Shown piece after piece: positions 6,851-63,511 of a stretch of DNA of 64,000 bases; position 1 is the stretch's first letter; the number at the start of each line of letters is the position of its first letter. The notes beneath the pieces were generated by a model that did not search any database, was not told where the DNA came from, and saw only the letters and a list, made by a program, of their open reading frames with translations. This DNA is from Endomicrobiales bacterium. Lineage in GTDB: Bacteria; Elusimicrobiota; Endomicrobiia; Endomicrobiales; CAWCFT01. The position numbers and the translations under genes were made by a program. Location of the stretch: contig CAWCFT010000004.1 of NCBI GenBank assembly GCA_963794945.1, forward strand, positions 64,001-128,000. Reading direction: 5' to 3'.

Positions 6851-8479
6851 TAGTGGGCCGAGACGGGTATGTTGATGATGAACGAAGAGCCTTCTTTAGG
6901 CGTGCTTTTTACGTGGATCTTCCCGTTATGCTGTTCAAGTATACCGTATGAAATGCTGAGGCCAAGGCCGATATTCTTTTTTGGGTCCTTGGTTGTAAAG
7001 AACGGCATGAATATCTTGTCGACGATCCTTGAATCTATCCCGGCGCCATTATCGTTGACTTCAACATAAACCTGTCCTTCAGCGGACGATGTTCTTATGG
7101 TTACGATCTTTTCGGTTTGGCTTCGTTCTTCTTGTGAATTAAATGACTGCTGCGCGTTTACGAACAGGTTAAGCAGAACCTGTTTTATCTGGTTAAAATC
7201 TATCTTTGTCGCGGGCAGGTCCGGCATAAGTTCCTTGACAACGCGTATGTTATCGTTCTGGAACTCGTATTCCACCAGCTCCAGCGCTTCTTCGACGGCC
7301 TGATTGATATCTGCATCGGCCAGCTGCGCCTTGTGGTACGATGAAAACACTTTGAGGTTATTGATGACTTCCCTGCACCGCTCTGACCCTTCCTTTATCC
7401 TGAGCAGCATCTTTTATATCAGCGGGAAGCGTCTTTTTTTTCAATATTTTTTCAGCCTGGGAACTTACCTGCTCTATCGGGGCGTTCAGCTGATTTACAA
7501 GGCTCGTGGCAACCTGCCCAACAGCCGACATCTTTTCGACAAGCACAACCTGCCTTCTCGACTGTTCCAGCTGCCTGTGAGCATTCTCGAGTTCCGATAT
7601 CTTTATTTCCAGTTTCTCATAAAGCTTTGTATTATCAATTGATTGAGCTATCTGGGAAACGAATATCGACAGGTTCCTTATGTCCGAAACGCTGAACTCG
7701 GAATGGTTCTTCGTTCTGGATACCATAAGGATACCAAGATTTTTGTTCTTTATCTTTATGGGGTAAGTTGCCAGCGATTTCATTTCGGAGTCAAGGAATA
7801 ACCCTTTCATTGCCGGGTTATCCGATAACGGGTGTTTGAAGATCACCGGCGAATCATTCATCTGCCCGGATGAATAAAGCCTTTCGGCGAGGCTGGTGAA
7901 CGACCCCTGATAAGGGTAATAAACAAGCGAGAACGACGCCGCGGCGAGGTACAGTTGTTCCTGGTGGTCAAACAATAAAAGCGCTATCTCATCGGCCCTG
8001 ATGACGTTCTTTAGTAGATTGATCATTATAGGGAAGAGTTTTTCCAGCTTGAGGCTCGAGAATATAGCCTTGCTGCTTTCGTACAGCGCGATTAGGGTTT
8101 TAAGTTCGCTTTTTTCAAGCGCTTTTTCAAGGAGGGCTATTACTTCGTCTATGTTGAAAGGTTTCTGTATGAAATCGTACGCGCCGTTCTTCATGGCTTC
8201 TACGGCGTTCTCAACAGTGGCGTAACCGGTTATCATTATAACTTCAGTCTCGGGCGAGACTTTTTTTACCGTATCAAGGACCTCAAGGCCGTCATGTTTT
8301 GGCATCTTGATGTTTGTTATGACAACGTCGTATTTTTCGGACTGTATCTTTGATATTGCTTCCTCGCCGTTCGACGCGGTATCTATGGTGTGGCCTAGTT
8401 TTGCAAGCTCTATCGTTAGCAGTTCGCGTATCCCCTGTTCGTCATCAACAATAAGGATCCTTGATTTTGGTGCCGCCAT
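6850..8479 (-). CDS. REC-GAF-histidine-kinase-like protein with degenerate phosphosites (frameshift near 7400)
   Basis: REC N-terminus, GAF, HATPase in ORF 6850-7410; close paralog of 24275-25912. Confidence 0.85.
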
Positions 8480-10679: not shown

Positions 10680-10691
10680 TAATTACAACAT

Positions 10692-10791
10692 ATCAAAAAT
10701 CAATAATCAAATATAAAAAATACATTCCAGAATCTAAAATCACTTTCAATATTTTATCTGTCATTTTGACTTTTGATTTTTGATATTTGAT
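10692..10791. repeat. Heptamer-periodic imperfect inverted repeat
   Basis: ATCAAAA ATCAATA ATCAAAT... mirrored by TTTTGAC TTTTGAT TTTTGAT ATTTGAT. Confidence 0.7.
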
Positions 10792-11497
10792 CTTCTTTTA
10801 GCCCAAGCATTTCGGCGATAGGCACTATTTTATAGCCTCTTTTTTGTATTTCTTCAATGATTTTTGGCAGGGCATCCACCGTAGGCTGGCGGAATTTTCC
10901 GCCATCGTGCATTAAGAATATCGCGCCCGAACCTATGTTCTTTGTATAAGCCTGAACAAGCTGATCAGCACTCATTTTTTTCCAGTCACAACCGAATGTC
11001 CAATTAATAAGATAATATCCTTTTTCCTTTGCCACCTCTTTTACCCATGCCCTTACATATCCATAAGGCATTCTCAACATGTACGGCCTGGTGCCCGTCA
11101 CGCCTTGTATCAACTTTTCAGACTTGTCGATCTCTTTTTCCAGCTGCTGCCTGTAATCGTCTTTCTTGTAAAAGTAGAAATTAGGGTGGCTGTAGCTGTG
11201 ACTGCCGATCTCGTGGCCGTCATCTAACACCATTTTCGCTATCTTAGAGCGAATTTCCACCTGGTCTCCTTCCATAAAGAACGTCGCCTTCACATTGTAT
11301 TTCTTAAGCACAGCCAGCACCTGGGCCGTGTAGTTGCCGGGGCCGTCGTCGAAAGTAAGCGCCATTTCTTTTTTATTGCGCGGCCCGTTGGCAAAGAACG
11401 CGCCCGGTTCGGCAGCCAAAACAAATACAGCGGCGCCTGCCATAGTGAAACAGATGACTAAAAACAGCTTGAACACCCAGGATGAACGTTTTTTCAT
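10754..11497 (-). CDS. Polysaccharide deacetylase (NodB/CE4), exported
   Basis: LTFDDGP, HSYSHP, RMPYG, LMHDG; probable start MKKRSS at 11497 overlapping the upstream stop. Confidence 0.92.
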   Translation of the reverse strand: MKKRSSWVFKLFLVICFTMAGAAVFVLAAEPGAFFANGPRNKKEMALTFDDGPGNYTAQVLAVLKKYNVKATFFMEGDQVEIRSKIAKMVLDDGHEIGSHSYSHPNFYFYKKDDYRQQLEKEIDKSEKLIQGVTGTRPYMLRMPYGYVRAWVKEVAKEKGYYLINWTFGCDWKKMSADQLVQAYTKNIGSGAIFLMHDGGKFRQPTVDALPKIIEEIQKRGYKIVPIAEMLGLKEDQISKIKSQNDR

Positions 11498-13150: not shown

Positions 13151-13922
13151 TTACAGGTATTTTAACAGCTCAGCGTACTGGGTGCCGCCGGTTATCTCCA
13201 GGAAGACATCTTCAAGGTTGCCGCCGTTCTTTTCCTTCTGCTTAAGTTCGCTGACACTTTCGAGCGCAATGATCTTGCCGCGATGGATAATACCAGCGCG
13301 GGAGGCTAGTTTCTCGGCTATTTCAAGCACATGTGTACACATGAATATCGCTACACCCCTGCTGGATAGTTCACAGAATATCTCTTTAACGAGCCTCGCG
13401 CTTTTCGGGTCGAGCCCCACAAGCGGCTCATCTAAGAACAAGGCCGTCGGGCTGTGCAGGAGAACGCTCGCGAGCACGAGCTTCTGCCTCATGCCGTGAG
13501 AATATGATTCTGTTGTCTCATCGGCCCACTTGGAAAGCTCGAACATCTCAAGCAGCTCCGGTATTTTATCTCTCTGGTAGGCCGGGTCAACCGAGTAAAT
13601 ATCCCCCACAAAACGCATGAATTCCAAGCCCGTAAGGTAAGGATATACAAAAGGCTGGTCCGAAACGTAACCCATAGACTGCTTGGCCTTGAGCGGTTCC
13701 TTAAGTATATCGAAGCCATTGATATACGCGGTTCCGGAAGTAGGGATGCAGCAGCCCGGACATAAGCTTTACGGTCGTGGTCTTGCCGGCGCCGTTAGGC
13801 CCGAGAAAAGCGAATATCTCCCCGGGGGCTATCTCGAAGTTAAGGCCGTCAACGGCCGTAAAATCACCGAATTTTTTGGTGAGCCCTTCTGATCTTATTG
13901 CGTAAGGTTTTATGATATCCAT
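13151..13922 (-). CDS. ABC transporter ATP-binding protein (frameshift near 13740)
   Basis: GPNGAGKTT in 5' ORF; YSHGMRQK, FLDEP, CTH in 3' ORF. Confidence 0.9.
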
Positions 13923-27519: not shown

Positions 27520-28787
27520 TCATTCTACAATTTTTGAATTATTTTTACCAATCAATCCGCTCACTTTGGGGCCCTTGAAATGGTACCTGCCGATCAGGCC
27601 GCAGCGGTCCTGTATGCCAAAATTCTCAGCTATAAGCACCGATGAAGGCTTTATCGTAAAATCGCCGTATTTTTTGTTGATCTCGTCAACTATGCCGGTG
27701 AGTTTCTGGTCTCTCTCGATATCTTCAAAAAGAAATTTCTGCCCGGCGTCTTTCTCGAGATTAGATATGCTGACACCCAAAAGCCTCACGGGTTTTTCAA
27801 GGGGAAGAGCGCCACCCAGTATCTCAAGCGCCGTTGAAAACATGTCGCGACCTTTTCTTATGTAATGCTTGAGGCTCTTCTGCCTGCCGAACGACGTAAA
27901 ATCCCCGTAGCGCACGTAGAAATGCACAGTCTTGCCTGACATCCCAGCCCGCCTCAGGCGCGCGGCGGTCTTTTCGCAGAGCATGAGAAGGTACGACCTT
28001 ATAGTCTGCATGTCGTAGGTATCTTTCGGAAGAGTGTGGCTGTGTCCGAACGACTTCTCCCGTTCGCAGTAGCTGTATTCCTTAACTGTAGAAGAATCCT
28101 CTCCGAGCCCTATCCTCTTAAGGTGCCAGCCTGATATCCCGAAGTGGAACATCATGAAATCTTCGCTGGCTTCGCCAAGCTCTTTGGCGGTATTAATACC
28201 AGCCGCTTGAGCTTTTCCGATATTTTGCCCCCCACGCCCACCCCTTGGAGTTTTTCCACGGGCACAGCCTCAAAAACCTTCGGTATATCCGCGCGCGATA
28301 TCTCCACAAGCCCATCGGGCTTCTGCATCTTGCTCGCGAGCTTCGATATGACCTTGTTCGGCCCTATGCCTATGGAGCAGAGTAGGTTGAGCTCGCTCTT
28401 TATCAGTTGTTTTATTTCTTTTGCTATGTCCCGGGCCGACCTCTCCGGCCGCACAAGCGGCGTGACGTCCACAAAACATTCGTCTATGGAATACGGCTCT
28501 ACTTGAGATGTAAAACGCAGCAGTATTTCGTGTATGTTGAGCGACGACCCCACATATTTGTGCATATCGCCCACGACCGTGACAAGCCCCGGGCATACAT
28601 TTTTTGCCTCGTACGGAGTCATGCCGGTTTTTACCCCAAAAGCCTTTGCCTCGTAAGAAGCGGCGGTAACTATTGTCCTGCCCTCCCCGCAAACAGCTAT
28701 AGGCTTTCCGCGCAGAGCGGGATTGACCGCCTGCTCAACGGATGCAAAAAACGCGTTCATATCGATAAGAAAGATTTTAGGTTCCAT
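27520..28787 (-). CDS. dinB: DNA polymerase IV, Y family (frameshift near 28200)
   Basis: IDMNAFFASVEQ, ASYEAK, SIDE, SKMQKPDG; C-terminal little-finger domain (KSFGHSHT, VRLLGV). Confidence 0.92.
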
Positions 28788-29071: not shown

Positions 29072-29663
29072 TTAAACCTTCCTGGTCAGATATACCACTT
29101 TTCCTGCTATCTCAATACTTTTGCCGCGTATAGGCTCGTACTTTGGGTTTTCCGGCTGGAGGTAGACCTCTGTGCCTTTTTTGCGCAGGCGCTTTACCGT
29201 GCCTTCGCTTCCGTCAACTTTGGCTACCACTATCTCGCCGTCTTCGGCGTCGGGCTGCTGGCGGACAACTATGGTGTCGCCCTCGTATATGCCGGCGCCT
29301 ACCATGCTGTCGCCTTTGACTTTCAAGGCAAAGTATGTGCCGTTTAAAACCATGCCCTTTTCAAGATAAAGATAATCCTCTATGCCCTCTATGGCCTCGG
29401 AAGGGTTGCCGGCAGGGACACTGCCCAGAACCGGAACAGTCATCCATGGCTTGTGCAGACGCCGGCATTATACCGCGGGAAAGGCCGGGGGTGTGCTTCA
29501 GATGCCCCTTCTTTACCAGGGCCGCAATATGTTTCTGAGCGGCGCCTATGCTGAAATTGAAATGCCCGGCTACCTCTCTTATAGAAGGTGCCCTGCCGAA
29601 ATCGGATATAAACCCCGAAATATGGCCCAGAACATTCTTCTGCTTCTCAGTTATTTTTTCCAT
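29072..29663 (-). CDS. lexA: SOS repressor LexA (frameshift near 29450)
   Basis: N-terminal HTH (TEKQ..PSIREVA), Ala-Gly cleavage site VPAG, GDSM, TVKR; AGGAGG before ATG 29663. Confidence 0.92.
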
Positions 29664-29770: not shown

Positions 29771-30666
29771 CTATTTCAATCCTAGAAGCTCTTTGAGGCG
29801 GGTAGCATTCTTAGCGGCGGCCCTGGTGGCAGTTATTGAAAAAAACGAATGTTTTTTTGGCCGAAGCATCCATTTTCTTTAGTTCCGGCAGAAAACCTTC
29901 CAGCTCGCTATCAGTGTAAAGATAGTTGTAACGCTCTTCCATTGGAGCGTTGAACCAGTTAGGGTTCCTGCCGTGAAGCCTTAGGTATGCGTTATCAGAG
30001 GTCACTTCGTTAACAAAAGGCATAAGGCGCGGCAACTTCGGCTCATCAACAACGCAGTAGCCGAGGCCGTTTTCCTTAAGGAACCCGAATGTCTCCGGCT
30101 TTGCCCAGGCGCGGTTACGGAACTCTATTATAAGCGGTGTATCCCCGAACCTTTGTTTGCAGTTTGTCAGATACCGATGAGAGCCTGCCGAAGGCTCGAA
30201 AAACACCGGGAACTGCAGGAGCACTCCGCCCAGTTTACCCTTGTCTTTCAATGGCCTTATCGAGTAGCAGAATTTGTCAACATTACCCAGCGCGTCTTTT
30301 TCCGAAGGCCTATTTGCGCCAAGACGGGTGTCGAATGGGTCATGTGTTATACCCCTGTAGCCTTTTACCACGAACTCGAAACCGGGACCGGTTTTCTTCT
30401 CCATACCCGCAAACGACTTATCCGAAACAAGCGCGTAATACGTCGAATTTATCTCAACACAGTCGAACCGCAGTTCACGCTCGTAAAATGCAAGCGCATC
30501 TTTCGGCTGGAGGTTTTTCGGGTAAACCCCGTTAGAAATGCCCGGACCATCAAGCTCAAACAATAGCGGCTGGCATACCTGTGTTTTTAGTATGAACATT
30601 TCTAACGTGGTAAACCGTCCCCCGCCAGTCCGCGAACGAAAATCCGGAGGTTCCTATTTTTATCAT
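29771..30666 (-). CDS. DUF72 (YecE) family protein with an ~87-bp palindromic insertion and frameshifts
   Basis: MIKIGTSGFSFADWRGTVY from 30666; VEINSTYY, LLQFP, IEFRN, YLRLHGRN, FFNN. Confidence 0.88.
30525..30612. mobile_element. Short TIR element inserted in the DUF72 gene
   Basis: ACCCCGTTAGAAATG...CATTTCTAACGTGGT; GGTAAACC occurs at 30521 and 30609 (88 bp apart). Confidence 0.7.
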
Positions 30667-42051: not shown

Positions 42052-42634
42052 TTACTGCAGCTTTTTTATCTCTTCAAGAACAAGCTCAGAGAACTTGCCG
42101 TATGTGTCCCTTGTATAATCTTTTGGAGGCATCACCGGCTTTCCGAATATAACCTTAAGCGCTTTGAATGAACCGAGCTTGCTAGAATTGACCAGTCTAA
42201 CCGGCACAACAGGCGCCTGCGATATACAGGCTATCATGCCGAGGCCAGGCCTTGCTTTTCCAAACCCGCCGTCTTTCGAACGGGTTCCTTCAGGGAATAT
42301 CAGGAGCGGCTCGCCGCTATCAAGGAGCTTGAAAACCTTCCTGAAAGCCGTTATATCCTGTTTCCCCCTGTTTATAGGGAATGCGTTGGTCCTCTTTATA
42401 AGAAAACCGAGCACCGGCATATCAAAAAGCTCCTTTTTGGCCAAAAAATGGAGCAGGCCTGCGCATAGCAGCACCAGTAAGCGGGGGATCAACGTAACTG
42501 GTGTGATTAGGTGCGATGATGACTCCGCCTGAGGACGGTATATTTTCGTGGCCCTCTATCTTCAAACGCCAAAACAATTTAAAGAACACAGAGAAAAGGA
42601 AACGCCCAAAGTAAAAGAGGAGGCTTGTTTTCAC
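42052..42634 (-). CDS. plsC: 1-acyl-sn-glycerol-3-phosphate acyltransferase (frameshift near 42460)
   Basis: NHTSYVD, FLAKKELF, IFPEGTRS. Confidence 0.9.
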
Positions 42635-50739: not shown

Positions 50740-51815
50740 CTACTTAAGTTTCTGCGGCCGCCAGTATGTGTACGCCGGCCTGTTAAAATCTATCGGCCCG
50801 GATTTTTCTTCGGGCGTGTTTTTTTCTCCCATGGTTTTCTTCGGCTGTTTGCGCACCGGAAAGCCGGTGGCTATGACCGTTATCTTTATTCTGTCGTCGA
50901 GGTTCGGGTCTATAACCTGCCCGTAGAACATGTGGGCCTCAGGTGACACCGATTCCTTGATCAACGTCATGGCTTCCCTAACTTCCATCATTGAAGTGGA
51001 CCTGTTGCCGGTTATATTGACCAGTACGCCTTTGGCGCCGTCAATAGAGATGTCGTCTAATAGCGGGCTCGAAATTGAGCGCCTGGCGGCGTCTATGGCA
51101 CGGGTGGGCCCCGAGCTTTCGCCGATACCCATGAGCGCTTCTCCTGCGCCCTGCATGATAGTCCTGACATCGGCGAAGTCAACGTTAATTTCGCCCGGCG
51201 TCGTTATGACATCCGATATTGCCTGTACCGCCTGGCGAAGGACGTCGTCTACTATCCTGAAAGCATCCTCTATGGGTGTCTTGTCATCAACTATAGTGAA
51301 CAGTTTTTCGTTCGGTATAACTATAAGCGTGTCGGTGAAGTTACGCAGGTTCTTTATTCCCTCTTCCGCCTGCAGGAGCCTTATCCTGTGCTCGAACTCA
51401 AAGGGCTTCGTTACAACGCCGACAGTGAGAATACCAAGCGACCTCGCCACCGATGCGATTATAGGAGCGGCTCCCGTGCCTGTGCCACCGCCCATGCCAG
51501 CGGTGATGAATACCATGTCGGTTCCCTGGAGCATCTCCTTTATTCTTTCGCGGCTTCTTCCGCAGCCTGTTGTCCGATGGTAGGGTTTCCGCCGACCCCG
51601 AGGCCCCGTGATATCTGTTCGCCTATCTGGATCCTTACCGGAGCGACAGAGCGCCTCAGCGCCTGCACGTCGGTGTTGATGGTTACGAACTCTATACCAT
51701 GGATGCCGGCCGCGATCATGCGGTTGACGGCGTTCGAACCGCCGCCGCCGACCCCCACAACTTTTAGTACAGCCGGATGTTCGGCATGTTCGTCCGCGAT
51801 TTTTATCCTGATCAT
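50740..51815 (-). CDS. ftsZ: Cell division protein FtsZ (frameshift near 51555)
   Basis: [28 protein letters not shown]-terminal core-like PAY tail. Confidence 0.96.
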
Positions 51816-59066: not shown

Positions 59067-60327
59067 TTAAATTACCTGAAGCACCGCGAATTTAAGATAT
59101 TCCGTCTCCGGCATGGAGATCAATACGGGGTGGTCGCGCGACTGCGAGCGAACCTCGAGAACCCTGACGTTCCTGCCTGCATCTGCCGCGGCCTGAGTTA
59201 GCATCTTCCTGAAGTCTTCCCGGCCCATGTGGTGCGAGCATGAAGAGCTTGCCAGTATCCCCCCCGGCGAGAGGGCTTCAAGCGCGAGCGTGTTGATCTT
59301 TAAGTAAACCCTATAGCCCGCATGGAAATTCTTTTTGTTCTTGATCAGCCCCGGCGGGTCTATATTTATTATATCAAATTTACCTCTTTTTTCTTTAAGG
59401 GCGCCCAGATATTCTGCGGCGTCTGCGCACTCGGAGCTAAAGCTGTTTTCAAGATCGTTTAGCGCCGCATTCTCGGCCGCAAGGGCGAGTGCGTTCTTGG
59501 ATGAGTCTACCCACACAACCTTTTTCGCGCCTGCTTTCGCGGCGTACATACCGAAAGCGCCAGTGTGGCAGAAACAGTCGAGAAAGGTTTTGCCGTCGCA
59601 ATATTTCGCAAGCGCAGCCCTGTTCTCCCGCTGGTCGAAATAAAAACCTGTTTTCTGTCCGCCCTTGAGGTCGGCGTAGAACTTCACCCCGTTAGAAACG
59701 CTACAAGCGCCTGCTGGAGATATAATGCCGTCATCTGTATTCGCGATGCATCCGTCGTTTCTAACTGGGTTAACAGAACTTTCATCTACGACCACTTTCT
59801 CAGGCACATTGCCGTAGAGTACCTCTATTTTTTCATCGAGGCCTTCTAGAGCCCTTGAAGACGAATCGTTCCTCGCTATAATGCCTTCGCATTTAAAAAC
59901 TTCTTTCAATGCCGAGATCACAGCTTCCCTGTTCTTCTCAAGGCCCGCGCTTAAAAATTGTACCGATAGATACTTGCCGTATTTGTCTACTATCAGAACC
60001 CGGAAGCCCGTCGGACTCTCCGAAAACCGCCCTGAAAGATTCAAGGCCGGGGAACAATTTTGTTCTGAAAGCCAGGGCCTTCAGTAGCCTGCCCGTCCAA
60101 AATTTCTCGTCTATCTGAAGGTTTTCTCTAGTAAGCAGCCTGAAGGCGATCAGCGAGTGCGGATTATAGAAACCAACGCCAAGGAACCCGTCTTTGCTGT
60201 TCGTAAGCTGTACCGTTTCCCCTATGGCGGGTTTTCCCGATATTTTTTCTATCTCGTTAGAGAATATCCACTGGTGCCCGGCGAGAAGCCTTTTGTCTTC
60301 CCCGTATTTTAAAGTTACTTTTTCCAT
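59067..60327 (-). CDS. rlmI: RlmI-like SAM-dependent rRNA methyltransferase (frameshift near 60000; 29-aa insertion)
   Basis: PUA-like GHQWIFSNEI, ESDGLPG, GQKTGFYFDQRENR, DCFCHTG, DPP, SSCS, DHP, ETEYLK. Confidence 0.88.
59685..59772. mobile_element. Short TIR element inserted in frame in rlmI
   Basis: ACCCCGTTAGAAACG...CGTTTCTAACTGGGT; 87 bp between GTTAA/GTGAA near-duplicates. Confidence 0.72.
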
Positions 60328-60848
60328 TACACTGCTCCTATCCACCTTTTGACTTCTTTTTTTACATCTATGAAATTCTCGCGAGAAAGCACGAGTATCG
60401 ACGTATCCGCTAATTTCTTTATCTCGTCCGTGAAAGGCTGCGCGTTGTAGCGGACCGTAGCGAGTATCTTTTTATTGGAATTTAAACATACAATAAGAGT
60501 TTTTCTAAACAGCTCGGACACGATCTCCATGGAACCGATCTCATCTATAACTATTATCTCTTTATCTTTGAGCGCCCTGAGCAGCGACTCAGCCGCGAGC
60601 CCTTCAAGCACGCCGATATCAATGCCGTACTTGTTTAGCTTGAAAGCGCTTTTCATCCCTTTTTTAGCGAGCACGCCTTCCTTTCCGTCAAAGGTTTTGA
60701 GCTTGAACCCGAGCCTCGCCCCGTTCTCAATTATCTCTTCGGTATAAAATCCGTCGATCCTGTCCCTGGCAGACAGGCAGACTTCCTTAATCAGTGTAGT
60801 TTTGCCCGATGCGGGCTTGCCGGTTATAAAAAGGTTTTTAGTGCTCAT
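60327..60848 (-). CDS. THEP1/NTPase_1 nucleoside triphosphatase
   Basis: ITGKPASGKTT, GFYTEE, VIDEIGSME. Confidence 0.9.
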   Translation of the reverse strand: MSTKNLFITGKPASGKTTLIKEVCLSARDRIDGFYTEEIIENGARLGFKLKTFDGKEGVLAKKGMKSAFKLNKYGIDIGVLEGLAAESLLRALKDKEIIVIDEIGSMEIVSELFRKTLIVCLNSNKKILATVRYNAQPFTDEIKKLADTSILVLSRENFIDVKKEVKRWIGAV

Positions 60849-60879: not shown

Positions 60880-61385
60880 CGGGGCTTTTCGCCCCTGCGA
60901 CCCTTAAACTTTTCTTTGCCTCACCGCAAAGAAAAGTTACAAAAGAAACGGTGCCCCGGTGGGCTATTCACTGCGTATTTTTCAGCGGCCTTGCAAACTC
61001 GCCCTTCGGCCGCTTTTATAACGGATTTAAAGGGAGCGGCACTTCCTCGCTGAAGGCTCGGTCGGGCTCAGACAAGCAAGGCCGAAATCCTCTGAAAAAT
61101 CCTCCGTTCATGGACAGCCCAAAGGGGTGGAGGTCTAAACCTTTAAACAAAATCTATTGATATTTAATGTTTTGCCCTGCTCCCCTTCGGGCTGACAATG
61201 AGCTAAAGTATTTTCGGAGGTTTCGGCAAGGACTGTTTGAGCTCCTCCTGGCAAAGCCGAGGAGCGAGTTCGCAGCCGCCGAAAATAATTTAGCGAATAG
61301 CCCTCCGGGGTGCTTTTCTTTTTCCCTATTTTCTTTGTACGCACAAAGAAAATAGGGTCAGGGGCGCGGGGGCGGAACAGCCCCG
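60880..61385. repeat. ~500-bp inverted-repeat element (two diverged structured units, MITE/REPIN-like)
   Basis: Left arm matches the reverse complement of the right arm block by block; hairpins at 60907-60938 and 61324-61357. Confidence 0.75.
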
Positions 61386-62665: not shown

Positions 62666-63511
62666 TTACTCTGCTTCAATTTCCTTTAATGATTTACCAT
62701 CTTTATTTTTCCAAGCAGTTAACCCGTTTGCTGATCCTCCATGTACAACTGCTGCAGCAGCACTCGGACTAGAAAATTCCTCATCTCGAGTGAATTCTAA
62801 ATATTCTGATTTAGTAGCTAGAACACCTTCATCTTTAAGTCTGTGTCTCATATTAGTCGACCACGGCCATTTCACTGAAGATGCTCGTTCGTTTAATACG
62901 GCTTGAGAACCATTCAAGACAACAAACCCATTTGGTGTAAGGAATCCTCTCGCCCTTAAACCTTTAATATCACAATATAATATTCCTTTCTCTACATCTG
63001 CTTTATTTTTACCAATAGGAATGACCAACAATTCTACTCCCAGAACAGGTAATAACTGATTTACTTTTCCCAGGAATACTTCCATATCTTCTCGATCCGA
63101 TTCTGGTAGTTTTGCGCCACTTTTTTGTCCGTTAATTACAAGTGCACGACCTGCCAAACTAGCTTGTTCGATGAGCTTCCCTTCCAAATAACGAATGTGT
63201 GCCTTTGTTAGATTTTCGTCTTTGCTAGTGAAGTATATAATCTGATTCCAAAAATCTCTTTCTAAATGTGCCTTAACTCGATCTCTTATATTTTCTGCTT
63301 CGCCAATGTATATAGCAGGTTTACCGGATTCTGGGTCATTCCCCGTTAGAAAGTATACACCTGAATTATCAGCTTCATTGCGACCAATAACACCATCAAA
63401 TTCACTACGTGGCCCCGCAACAGCTTTCCCTGTCCAATTTGATAGTTCTGCGGTTCTTAGTCGTTTAGGATCTCCTTCTGCAAGAAAAATTTTGATTGTT
63501 GCGCTAGACAT
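62666..63511 (-). CDS. GIY-YIG nuclease family protein with DUF4357-like C-terminus
   Basis: GVYFL...IYIGEAE..R...H; FSSPSAAAAVV.G.SANG...WK; visibly AT-richer than its flanks. Confidence 0.85.
   Translation of the reverse strand: MSSATIKIFLAEGDPKRLRTAELSNWTGKAVAGPRSEFDGVIGRNEADNSGVYFLTGNDPESGKPAIYIGEAENIRDRVKAHLERDFWNQIIYFTSKDENLTKAHIRYLEGKLIEQASLAGRALVINGQKSGAKLPESDREDMEVFLGKVNQLLPVLGVELLVIPIGKNKADVEKGILYCDIKGLRARGFLTPNGFVVLNGSQAVLNERASSVKWPWSTNMRHRLKDEGVLATKSEYLEFTRDEEFSSPSAAAAVVHGGSANGLTAWKNKDGKSLKEIEAE

Follow-up and report, generated by a model that had tools for sequence, protein, structure and literature searches.

Why does rlmI of an uncultivated Endomicrobiales bacterium carry 29 additional codons that begin and end with inverted copies of the same short repeat? 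The gene lies on the minus strand (59067..60345) of a 64,000-nucleotide stretch of contig CAWCFT010000004.1, which we refer to as the window, and encodes a protein with PUA, central and methyltransferase domains. The initial annotation, made from the letters of the window, read the extra segment as the second copy of a palindromic mini-element that invades proteins in frame. We compared the segment with homologous proteins and with other genomes. [quoted passage not shown]

Anatomy of the two copies in the window

We found that the element in rlmI (copy 2) spans 83 bp at 59687..59769 and is bounded by TIRs of 14 bp (CCCCGTTAGAAAYG). One arm lies at 59687..59700 on the plus strand (CCCCGTTAGAAACG) and the other at 59756..59769 on the minus strand; in minus-strand letters the two ends read CCCAGTTAGAAACG (59756..59769) and CGTTTCTAACGGGG and are complementary at 13 of 14 positions. 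An inverted-repeat finder reported them as pair I10, with arms at 59683-59700 and 59756-59773 and a gap of 55 nt. The element is flanked by TTCA (59683..59686) and TTAA (59770..59773), the presumed halves of a target-site duplication. These match at three of four positions and bring the insertion period to 87 bp, or 29 codons. The minus strand reads GTT AAC CCA GTT AGA AAC G...C GTT TCT AAC GGG GTG AAG. At the one flank position that differs, TTAA against TGAA in coding-strand letters, the change is synonymous since GTT and GTG both encode Val. Across the element the frame is VVVDESS-VNPVRNDGCIANTDDGIISPAGACSVSNG-VKFYADL, in which the element itself reads PVRN...VSNG. The sequence and the in-frame, stop-free insert of 29 codons are thus as first described.

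The pattern GTTAGAAAYG-N40-70-CRTTTCTAAC matched the window twice, at copy 2 and at a copy in a DUF72-family gene (copy 1), versus no match in 100 shuffles. When up to one mismatch to the core 10-mer was allowed, its occurrences in the window were the four arms of copies 1 and 2 plus one chance site. A solo 12-nt end match at 63341-63354 (CCCCGTTAGAAA), for which no partner arm was found, is compatible with chance, as about 0.4 are expected at the stringency applied. It lies inside a GIY-YIG/DUF4357 gene and encodes the FLTG of GVYFLTGN.

A protein search with RlmI gave 1915 relatives at E ≤1e-20, the best 120 of which were listed; 12 of these, ranging from 85% to 50% identity, were aligned. 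None of the 12 contained the insert, and DE(C/G)-(A/G)(V/C/L)KF was uninterrupted at the site. The closest relatives among the best 120 of 1915 were metagenome proteins at 73-85% identity, while the nearest named ones among the matches listed, from Elusimicrobiota/Endomicrobiales metagenome-assembled genomes (MAGs), were 50-63% identical. The insert is absent from solved structures of the RlmI family as well. When the RlmI open reading frame (ORF) of the window was aligned by phmmer to TTHA1280, query residues 17-91 corresponded to chain residues 108-180 and query residues 120-325 to 180-382. PH1915 likewise aligned contiguously over the insert site, leaving query residues 92-119 without a counterpart. 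Judged by these alignments, the RlmI segment is an insertion, as had been supposed, rather than a native loop.

An AlphaFold2 model of RlmI was obtained with a mean predicted local distance difference test score (pLDDT) of 77.8 and a predicted template modelling score of 0.77. In this model ORF residues 92-117 are coil with pLDDT <50, placed between strands 83-87 and 121-125. The 29 residues are therefore predicted to form a disordered surface loop of RlmI, which is consistent with the earlier idea that the insert is tolerated at the surface.

As assembled, a single surplus base near 59994 splits rlmI into two ORFs (59938-60345 and 59067-60044). An exact look-up of the window's predicted proteins yielded cluster mates that stem from other assemblies. 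One of these, P0241 (419 residues, from an independent assembly), is a full-length, unbroken RlmI with the identical 29-residue insert, and reads DGLPGSIVDKYG at the point where the window rlmI is frameshifted. The identical insert is present in two independently assembled records, P0241 and P0242.

Copy 1 lies at 30527..30610, after codon 19 of a DUF72-family gene on the minus strand (29811..30666; Pfam E = 1e-53), and measures 84 bp as assembled and 83 bp as implied by an independent assembly. Its arms are also complementary at 13 of 14 positions, and the inverted-repeat finder placed them in pair I6 (30521-30540 and 30597-30616, gap 56 nt), with the same core as I10. Here the target-site duplication is a perfect 4-bp direct repeat, TAAA at 30523..30526 and at 30611..30614, and the direct-repeat match extends to GGTAAACC at 30521-30528 and 30609-30616. 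In the solved DUF72 protein 1vpq, residues 16-32 align to a short upstream ORF (IGTSGFSFADWRGTVY) and residues 29-257 to a long ORF (VYPKNLQPK...). These two blocks bracket the site of copy 1, which indicates that the element splits a contiguous DW(K/R)G(V/T)VYP.

With its duplication, copy 1 as assembled adds 84+4 = 88 bp; a TGA falls in the upstream frame, the downstream frame is +1, and the DUF72 frame is shifted. The gene is broken within the element and again near its 3' end. P0245 (298 residues), which comes from an independent assembly, is an unbroken DUF72 protein that reads RGTVY-HVRNVHTKNTGIQPLLFELDGPGISNGVY-PKNL and has a stop-free insert of 29 residues. The statement that both genes read the ends in one and the same phase consequently fails for the letters of the window and holds in P0245.

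Compared with P0241 and P0245, the window has two extra bases, one near 30574 and one near 59994, and the DUF72 gene is shifted once more at its 3' end. We found single-base breaks in rlmI, the DUF72 gene (twice), lexA, ftsZ, plsC/cmk, dinB, an ABC ATPase gene and a histidine kinase gene; the frameshift sites are ~59994, ~30574, 29811-29820, 29361-29443, 51534-51560, 42422-42492, 28152-28200, 13640-13760 and 7358-7410. Since rlmI and the DUF72 gene are intact in other assemblies and similar breaks affect core genes, we infer an indel-prone assembly rather than pseudogenes. Indels of one nucleotide are frequent enough in this assembly that any frame-based reading of the window calls for caution.

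A repeat family in other genomes

The core pattern was scanned over 185,579 species-representative genomes, which gave 56 matches at 55 loci. Tens of chance matches were anticipated from base composition. Copies of the family were picked by their outer flanks, CCCC/GGGG, which lie outside the search pattern and had to agree at no fewer than six of eight positions. We found that 23 of the 56 matches passed, where chance would give an estimated ~0.2. Many of the matches were unrelated, being Pedobacter repeats, hairpins and coding coincidences. The Pedobacter arrays (L007 2617-3202, L021 791-863 and L024 39-1168) consist of a different repeat, GCTCGTTAGAAACGAGCG, which has the core 10-mer in common apparently by coincidence. 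The window's own genome is not among the genomes of the 23 scan-derived copies, and the 25 copies discussed below are these 23 plus the two of the window. This bears out the initial annotation in that the element is a repeated one with constant ends.

The scan-derived copies were located in MAGs labelled Planctomycetota (six in JAZDFP01, three in JAZDMB01, three in JBFMDM01 and single copies in JAZDFB01, JBBTIZ01, JASEHY01 and JACQXL01), in the unclassified MAG DAHXOM01 (three), and singly on contigs labelled Omnitrophota, Paceibacterota, Cypionkella and Pseudomonadota. Several copies per genome are thus seen in JAZDFP01, JAZDMB01, JBFMDM01 and DAHXOM01 by pattern matches, and in the window, where two occur within 64 kb. 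Genes common to the window genome and the Planctomycetota loci are merely 40-56% identical. About 20 of the 25 copies are intergenic or just 5' of genes, often at gene boundaries, and are found in short spacers or upstream of housekeeping genes, among them murC, aroA, yajC and a TonB-dependent receptor gene. The term protein-invading accordingly describes a surviving minority of in-gene copies and not a shown specialisation of the family.

Relaxed-end variants lie near some copies (L020 2207-2274 and L032 3596-3675), which suggests that the core pattern undercounts the family. Elements of the GTTAGAAAAT type stand on either side of a PilZ gene in locus L042. Around this gene there are three elements within 1 kb (1-53, 817-911 and 955-1038), and locus L043 is syntenic. 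Two of the three are a longer variant with GTTAGAAAAT ends, and one abuts a stop codon, AACTAG being followed directly by CCCC. A full-text literature search with the end strings gave no relevant match, an unrelated Streptococcus paper aside, and the family seems to be undescribed so far.

The ends of the family are of the CCCCGTTAGA type, and their outer CCCC positions are 90-100% conserved over 50 ends. In the flanking 4 bp the consensus is Y at -8 (47 of 50 ends), then T/G/C, then any base but G (49 of 50) and R at -5 (49 of 50). Perfect 4-bp direct repeats flank 9 of the 25 copies (CTCA, TGAA twice, CTAA, TGCA, CTCG, CCCA, TTAA and TAAA), versus ~0.1 by chance, and five further copies match at three of four flank positions. 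Since seven of the nine perfect repeats are non-palindromic, they represent duplications rather than a prolonged inverted repeat. A GT(T/G)(T/A)A-like target, as first proposed, fits the two window copies but has to be replaced family-wide by a looser 4-bp duplication of the form Y-N-N-R.

The length, which had been taken to be fixed, varies between 68 and 92 bp, the modes being 80 and 83; it falls within 79-84 bp in 22 of 25 copies, and the arms are 51-56 nt apart in 22 of 25. For 16 of the 25 copies, taken as assembled, the length added to the host DNA (72, 84, 87 or 96 bp) is divisible by three, which gives a binomial P of 0.0016 with shared descent ignored, although the majority of copies lie between genes.

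The interiors of copies 1 and 2 are unrelated in either orientation. When a window interior was compared with any other copy the best identity was 0.62-0.64, and random pairs reach a maximum of 0.67, in agreement with the earlier observation that interiors differ. We clustered the interiors at thresholds of 0.70 and 0.75 identity; the 25 interiors fell into 17 clusters at 70%, and those of the window were above random level to none. Folding of the interiors gave a mean z of -0.2 with 0 of 25 below -2, hence no secondary structure of their own, and palindromic is an apt word for the 14-bp ends and not for the interiors. When whole copies were folded as RNA on both strands, z was -1.2 (coding) and -1.8 for copy 2, and -3.4 and -2.6 for copy 1. 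A search of the window and four loci against Rfam found only a tRNA and no family matching the element.

Pfam searches detected no transposase domain in the 63 ORFs of the window, where the initial annotation had likewise seen no mobilising enzyme, or in 103 ORFs around other copies. Longer elements with the same ends and a transposase or nuclease had been suggested as something to look for; at the loci, TIR pairs 50-3000 bp apart were chance-level candidates only, and no transposase accompanied them. A pair in L003 (713, 2656) was considered as a parent insertion sequence (IS). The stretch between these ends codes for an AAA_22 protein among secretion genes, and the pair includes a degenerate solo end; we judged it not to be an IS.

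Copies inside genes and how they may persist

In-frame residence in proteins was found to recur: in RlmI, DUF72, a UvrC-like protein and, twice, a PyrK-like protein. The UvrC-like GIY-YIG protein of two species-level MAGs (L029 and L036; 88% identical) contains HPVRND...ENISNGA in a Cys-rich variable loop. This insert is present in P0121 and P0122, whereas it is absent from the 89%-identical P0123 and from nine further homologues. Four to five of its residues have changed between the two species, still without a stop. The PyrK-like electron-transfer subunit P0248 (333 residues) has two in-frame inserts, one spanning residues 50-76 and the other residues 167-193, which are oppositely oriented. 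Both belong to the Planctomycetota subfamily, and the solved PyrK 5ksw_B has neither. In the ABC ATPase P0246 (L004 2992-3081) the annotated N-terminus is the element. Its annotated start is a Met just outside the element, so that the element encodes the first ~30 residues, and translation may in truth begin further downstream.

The in-gene copies all share one phase of the element, PVRN...ISNG, and only PVRN and SN are invariant among the insert peptides. P0248 and P0246 were found with a profile of this phase, so that the unbiased in-gene cases number three. All three in-gene copies found by DNA search have a length that is a multiple of three and are open. In elements whose total length is divisible by three, the in-gene phase, which starts from the second C, avoids TAG and TAA, which the repeats contain in one other phase, and it is the interior that then decides if a copy is open. 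Among the 17 elements whose total is a multiple of three, 13 of 34 readings in the in-gene phase are open; for the 13 non-gene elements the count is 5 of 26.

A search of proteomes for the insert-end motif, which the initial annotation had proposed, was productive with one method and not with another. A word-indexed search with the insert-peptide profile gave six proteins at E ≤10, of which four were already known or in the loci, one was new (P0248) and one was an unrelated DVSNG-repeat protein. An exhaustive HMMER search of 1.84 billion representatives with the profile gave three matches, all unrelated repeat proteins. This suggests that the insert motif is too short for the latter method.

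We propose the following course of events for a MITE. The element consists of 14-bp TIRs (CCCCGTTAGAAAYG) around an interior of ~55 bp that neither conserves its sequence nor folds by itself. The ends would be recognised by a transposase supplied from elsewhere, presumably of a kind that makes a 4-bp staggered cut at Y-N-N-R sites, and element plus duplication amount to 87 bp. The repeats are stop-free in two of three phases, with CCC GTT AGA AAT giving PVRN and ATT TCT AAC GGG giving ISNG, and an insertion with an open interior could therefore persist in a gene if the loop that receives it is tolerant. In rlmI the landing site would be the turn that leads from the central domain's last strand to the first strand of the methyltransferase domain. 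There the element would be transcribed and translated with rlmI as a disordered surface loop of 29 residues, and the enzyme would presumably retain its activity. The DUF72 gene, 29 kb away, would have followed the same course.

Several of our results weigh against this proposal. In the window itself rlmI is frameshifted and copy 1 breaks the DUF72 gene, so that the intact reading comes from two proteins of other assemblies. A recognisable duplication is lacking at 11 of 25 copies. The interiors are unrelated even within one genome yet the length is tight, which is atypical of MITE families that derive from a master copy. Neither a transposase nor an autonomous element with such ends turned up among the ORFs of the window and the loci, and it is from anatomy that mobility is deduced. 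The alignment supplied to AlphaFold2 was shallow, with 14 sequences only.

If the element had instead inactivated rlmI as well as the DUF72 gene, the two would be decaying pseudogenes and the open frame would be luck. The frameshift near 59994 and the 88-bp copy 1 with its TGA would agree with this, and a stop-free interior of 27 codons is not very rare, as the 13 open readings out of 34 illustrate. However, the unbroken RlmI of 419 residues and DUF72 protein of 298 residues from independent assemblies contain the inserts, and similar one-nucleotide breaks in lexA, ftsZ, plsC and other core genes point to assembly error. The catalytic half of RlmI, moreover, is 73-85% identical to its closest relatives among the matches listed and has every invariant motif, and we consider decay distinctly improbable. 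Removal of the insert at the RNA level had been raised at the outset. It might be lost before translation either by intron-like or RNase excision at the repeat stem or by programmed bypassing, and the arms could pair as a stem of ~14 bp in the mRNA. We regard such removal as very improbable. The coding-strand fold of copy 2 is no better than shuffles, and no intron or ribozyme in Rfam matched. A length divisible by three and an open frame would be needless if the insert were excised, yet they are true of every in-gene copy, versus 5 of 26 readings elsewhere. The UvrC insert gained amino-acid changes and no stop in two species. Inserts that keep their length class and remain open, in UvrC across speciation, are what read-through under selection would be expected to produce and RNA excision would not.

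The repeats might also not be relics of transposition but sites that the host selects, such as paired protein-binding or recombinase sites. On this view it makes sense that ends and spacing are conserved around a free interior: the CCCC/GGGG outside the search pattern are about 95% conserved, the interiors are at random-level identity, and the spacing is near constant in 22 of the 25 copies. Against it, the direct 4-bp duplications, nine of them perfect and seven of those non-palindromic, are the signature of insertion, presence and absence are clean in comparison with close homologues, and the copies are scattered beside unrelated housekeeping genes. Host sites alone thus appear improbable to us, with the proviso that an element may serve a function and still be mobile. 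In favour of an ordinary RlmI loop peculiar to this lineage, or of an artefact of assembly, nothing speaks but the position of the segment in a loop-prone turn. Within the window another gene has the same ends, as do 23 other loci, all 12 aligned homologues lack the segment, and P0241 and P0242 contain it unchanged; the likelihood of a loop or artefact is in our view close to nil.

Relation to known elements and implications

Rickettsia palindromic elements (RPEs), reportedly described by Ogata et al. in 2000 and 2002, are the analogue to which the rlmI insert was initially likened. In the passages of PMC10969869 devoted to them, RPEs are small repeated selfish DNA without a transposase that resides in frame in unrelated housekeeping genes, is translated and is thought to be compatible with the fold of the host protein. 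The same passages give them a length of ~150 bp and one conserved encoded peptide per family, and confine them to Rickettsia (PMC10969869). The same source extends in-frame or ORF residence, as a more occasional event, to cyanobacterial MITEs, ERIC and QMITE1 (PMC10969869). Like RPEs as so described, the present element is in frame in RlmI, DUF72, UvrC-like and, twice, PyrK-like proteins with the ORFs preserved. By the same descriptions it is set apart in that it measures 68-92 bp and conserves only its 14-bp ends, which amount to 4+4 residues. It also differs from what is described of RPEs in its interior without a hairpin, the lack of an element-wide palindrome and its clear 4-bp duplications. 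The hosts are uncultivated lineages of free-living type and not Rickettsia, and the copies are mostly intergenic. The analogy thus holds for function, whereas host, length, palindrome and peptide, as far as these descriptions go, speak against membership.

Prokaryotic MITEs (Correia/NEMIS, ERIC, Nezha and Coxiella QMITE1/2) are characterised in PMC10969869, in the sections on such elements, as short, multi-copy elements with TIRs and target-site duplications and without a coding gene, which sometimes overlap or fuse with ORFs. QMITE1 is given as 300-400 bp and QMITE2 as 150-190 bp in the corresponding part of PMC5896051. The present element agrees with MITEs in its small size, the lack of an internal ORF, its TIRs and target duplications and its dispersed copies. 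Unlike most MITEs it is smaller, its interiors are unrelated at constant length, and its ends are common to MAGs of several phylum labels; relative to the MITE definition, no parent IS came to light among the window ORFs and those near other copies. The IS5 group, with YTAR targets, and IS1380, with ends that start with CC, duplicate 4 bp at short targets of palindrome-like form. The element resembles these families in its 4-bp duplication, its Y..R target and its ends beginning with CC. No full-length IS with the present ends was seen.

The attC sites of integrons have the consensus RYYYAAC ... GTTRRRY. The element is similar to attC in that an inverted pair of short core sites with GTT/AAC surrounds a variable centre of similar length. 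It differs in that GTTAGA is 5' and TCTAAC 3' on either strand, which is inside-out, and in its dispersed single copies and target duplications. Since the order of the core sites is reversed relative to this consensus, we rejected identity with attC; no integrase or cassette array was found among the window ORFs. REP/BIME units are described in the relevant part of PMC3733652 as 20-40 bp long, each self-complementary and with a GTAG or CGTC head. We rejected these as well, the present 14-mer being not self-complementary and having no GTAG/CGTC head as described there. An intein or self-splicing intron was discarded too, as the 29-residue insert has no Pfam domain and no Rfam match was obtained.

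The window contains further repeats. One, an unrelated small TIR element at 2587-2674, lies upstream of exbB in the spacer; its two 16-bp arms (TGTCATTGCGAGGAGC / GCTCCTCGCAATGACA) match perfectly across a gap of 54 nt, nearly the spacing of copy 2. Clusters of inverted repeats, A/T-rich and other, lie at 10690-10866 downstream of tRNA-Leu and at 60900-61360 in the spacer between an NTPase gene and wecB (pairs I2, I3, I5, I12-I14 and I20).

In-frame selfish DNA in housekeeping proteins has so far been treated as a peculiarity of Rickettsia, scattered cases aside. The in-frame event in rlmI is of a known kind, and it is the repeat family behind it that seems new. Our data suggest that in uncultivated bacteria, which represent two or more distant lineages, a much smaller element, defined by its ends only, does likewise in rlmI, DUF72, uvrC and pyrK-like genes. 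For annotation this means that 29-residue 'loops' and false N-terminal extensions of MAG proteins can be transposon-derived. For protein evolution such an element is a ready source of insertions at turns. That ends and length are conserved around free interiors would point to a transposase whose substrate requirements are unusual. It is also conceivable, though we think it unlikely, that the family has been shaped by life inside coding sequence and is a counterpart of the Rickettsia 'protein-coding palindromes' across uncultivated phyla. This idea comes from the length classes divisible by three, from the turn-forming PVRN and ISNG, which the repeats encode whichever way round they lie, from the conservation of ends and length only, and from the one protein with two copies. 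If this is true, core enzymes would repeatedly gain new surface loops from the family.

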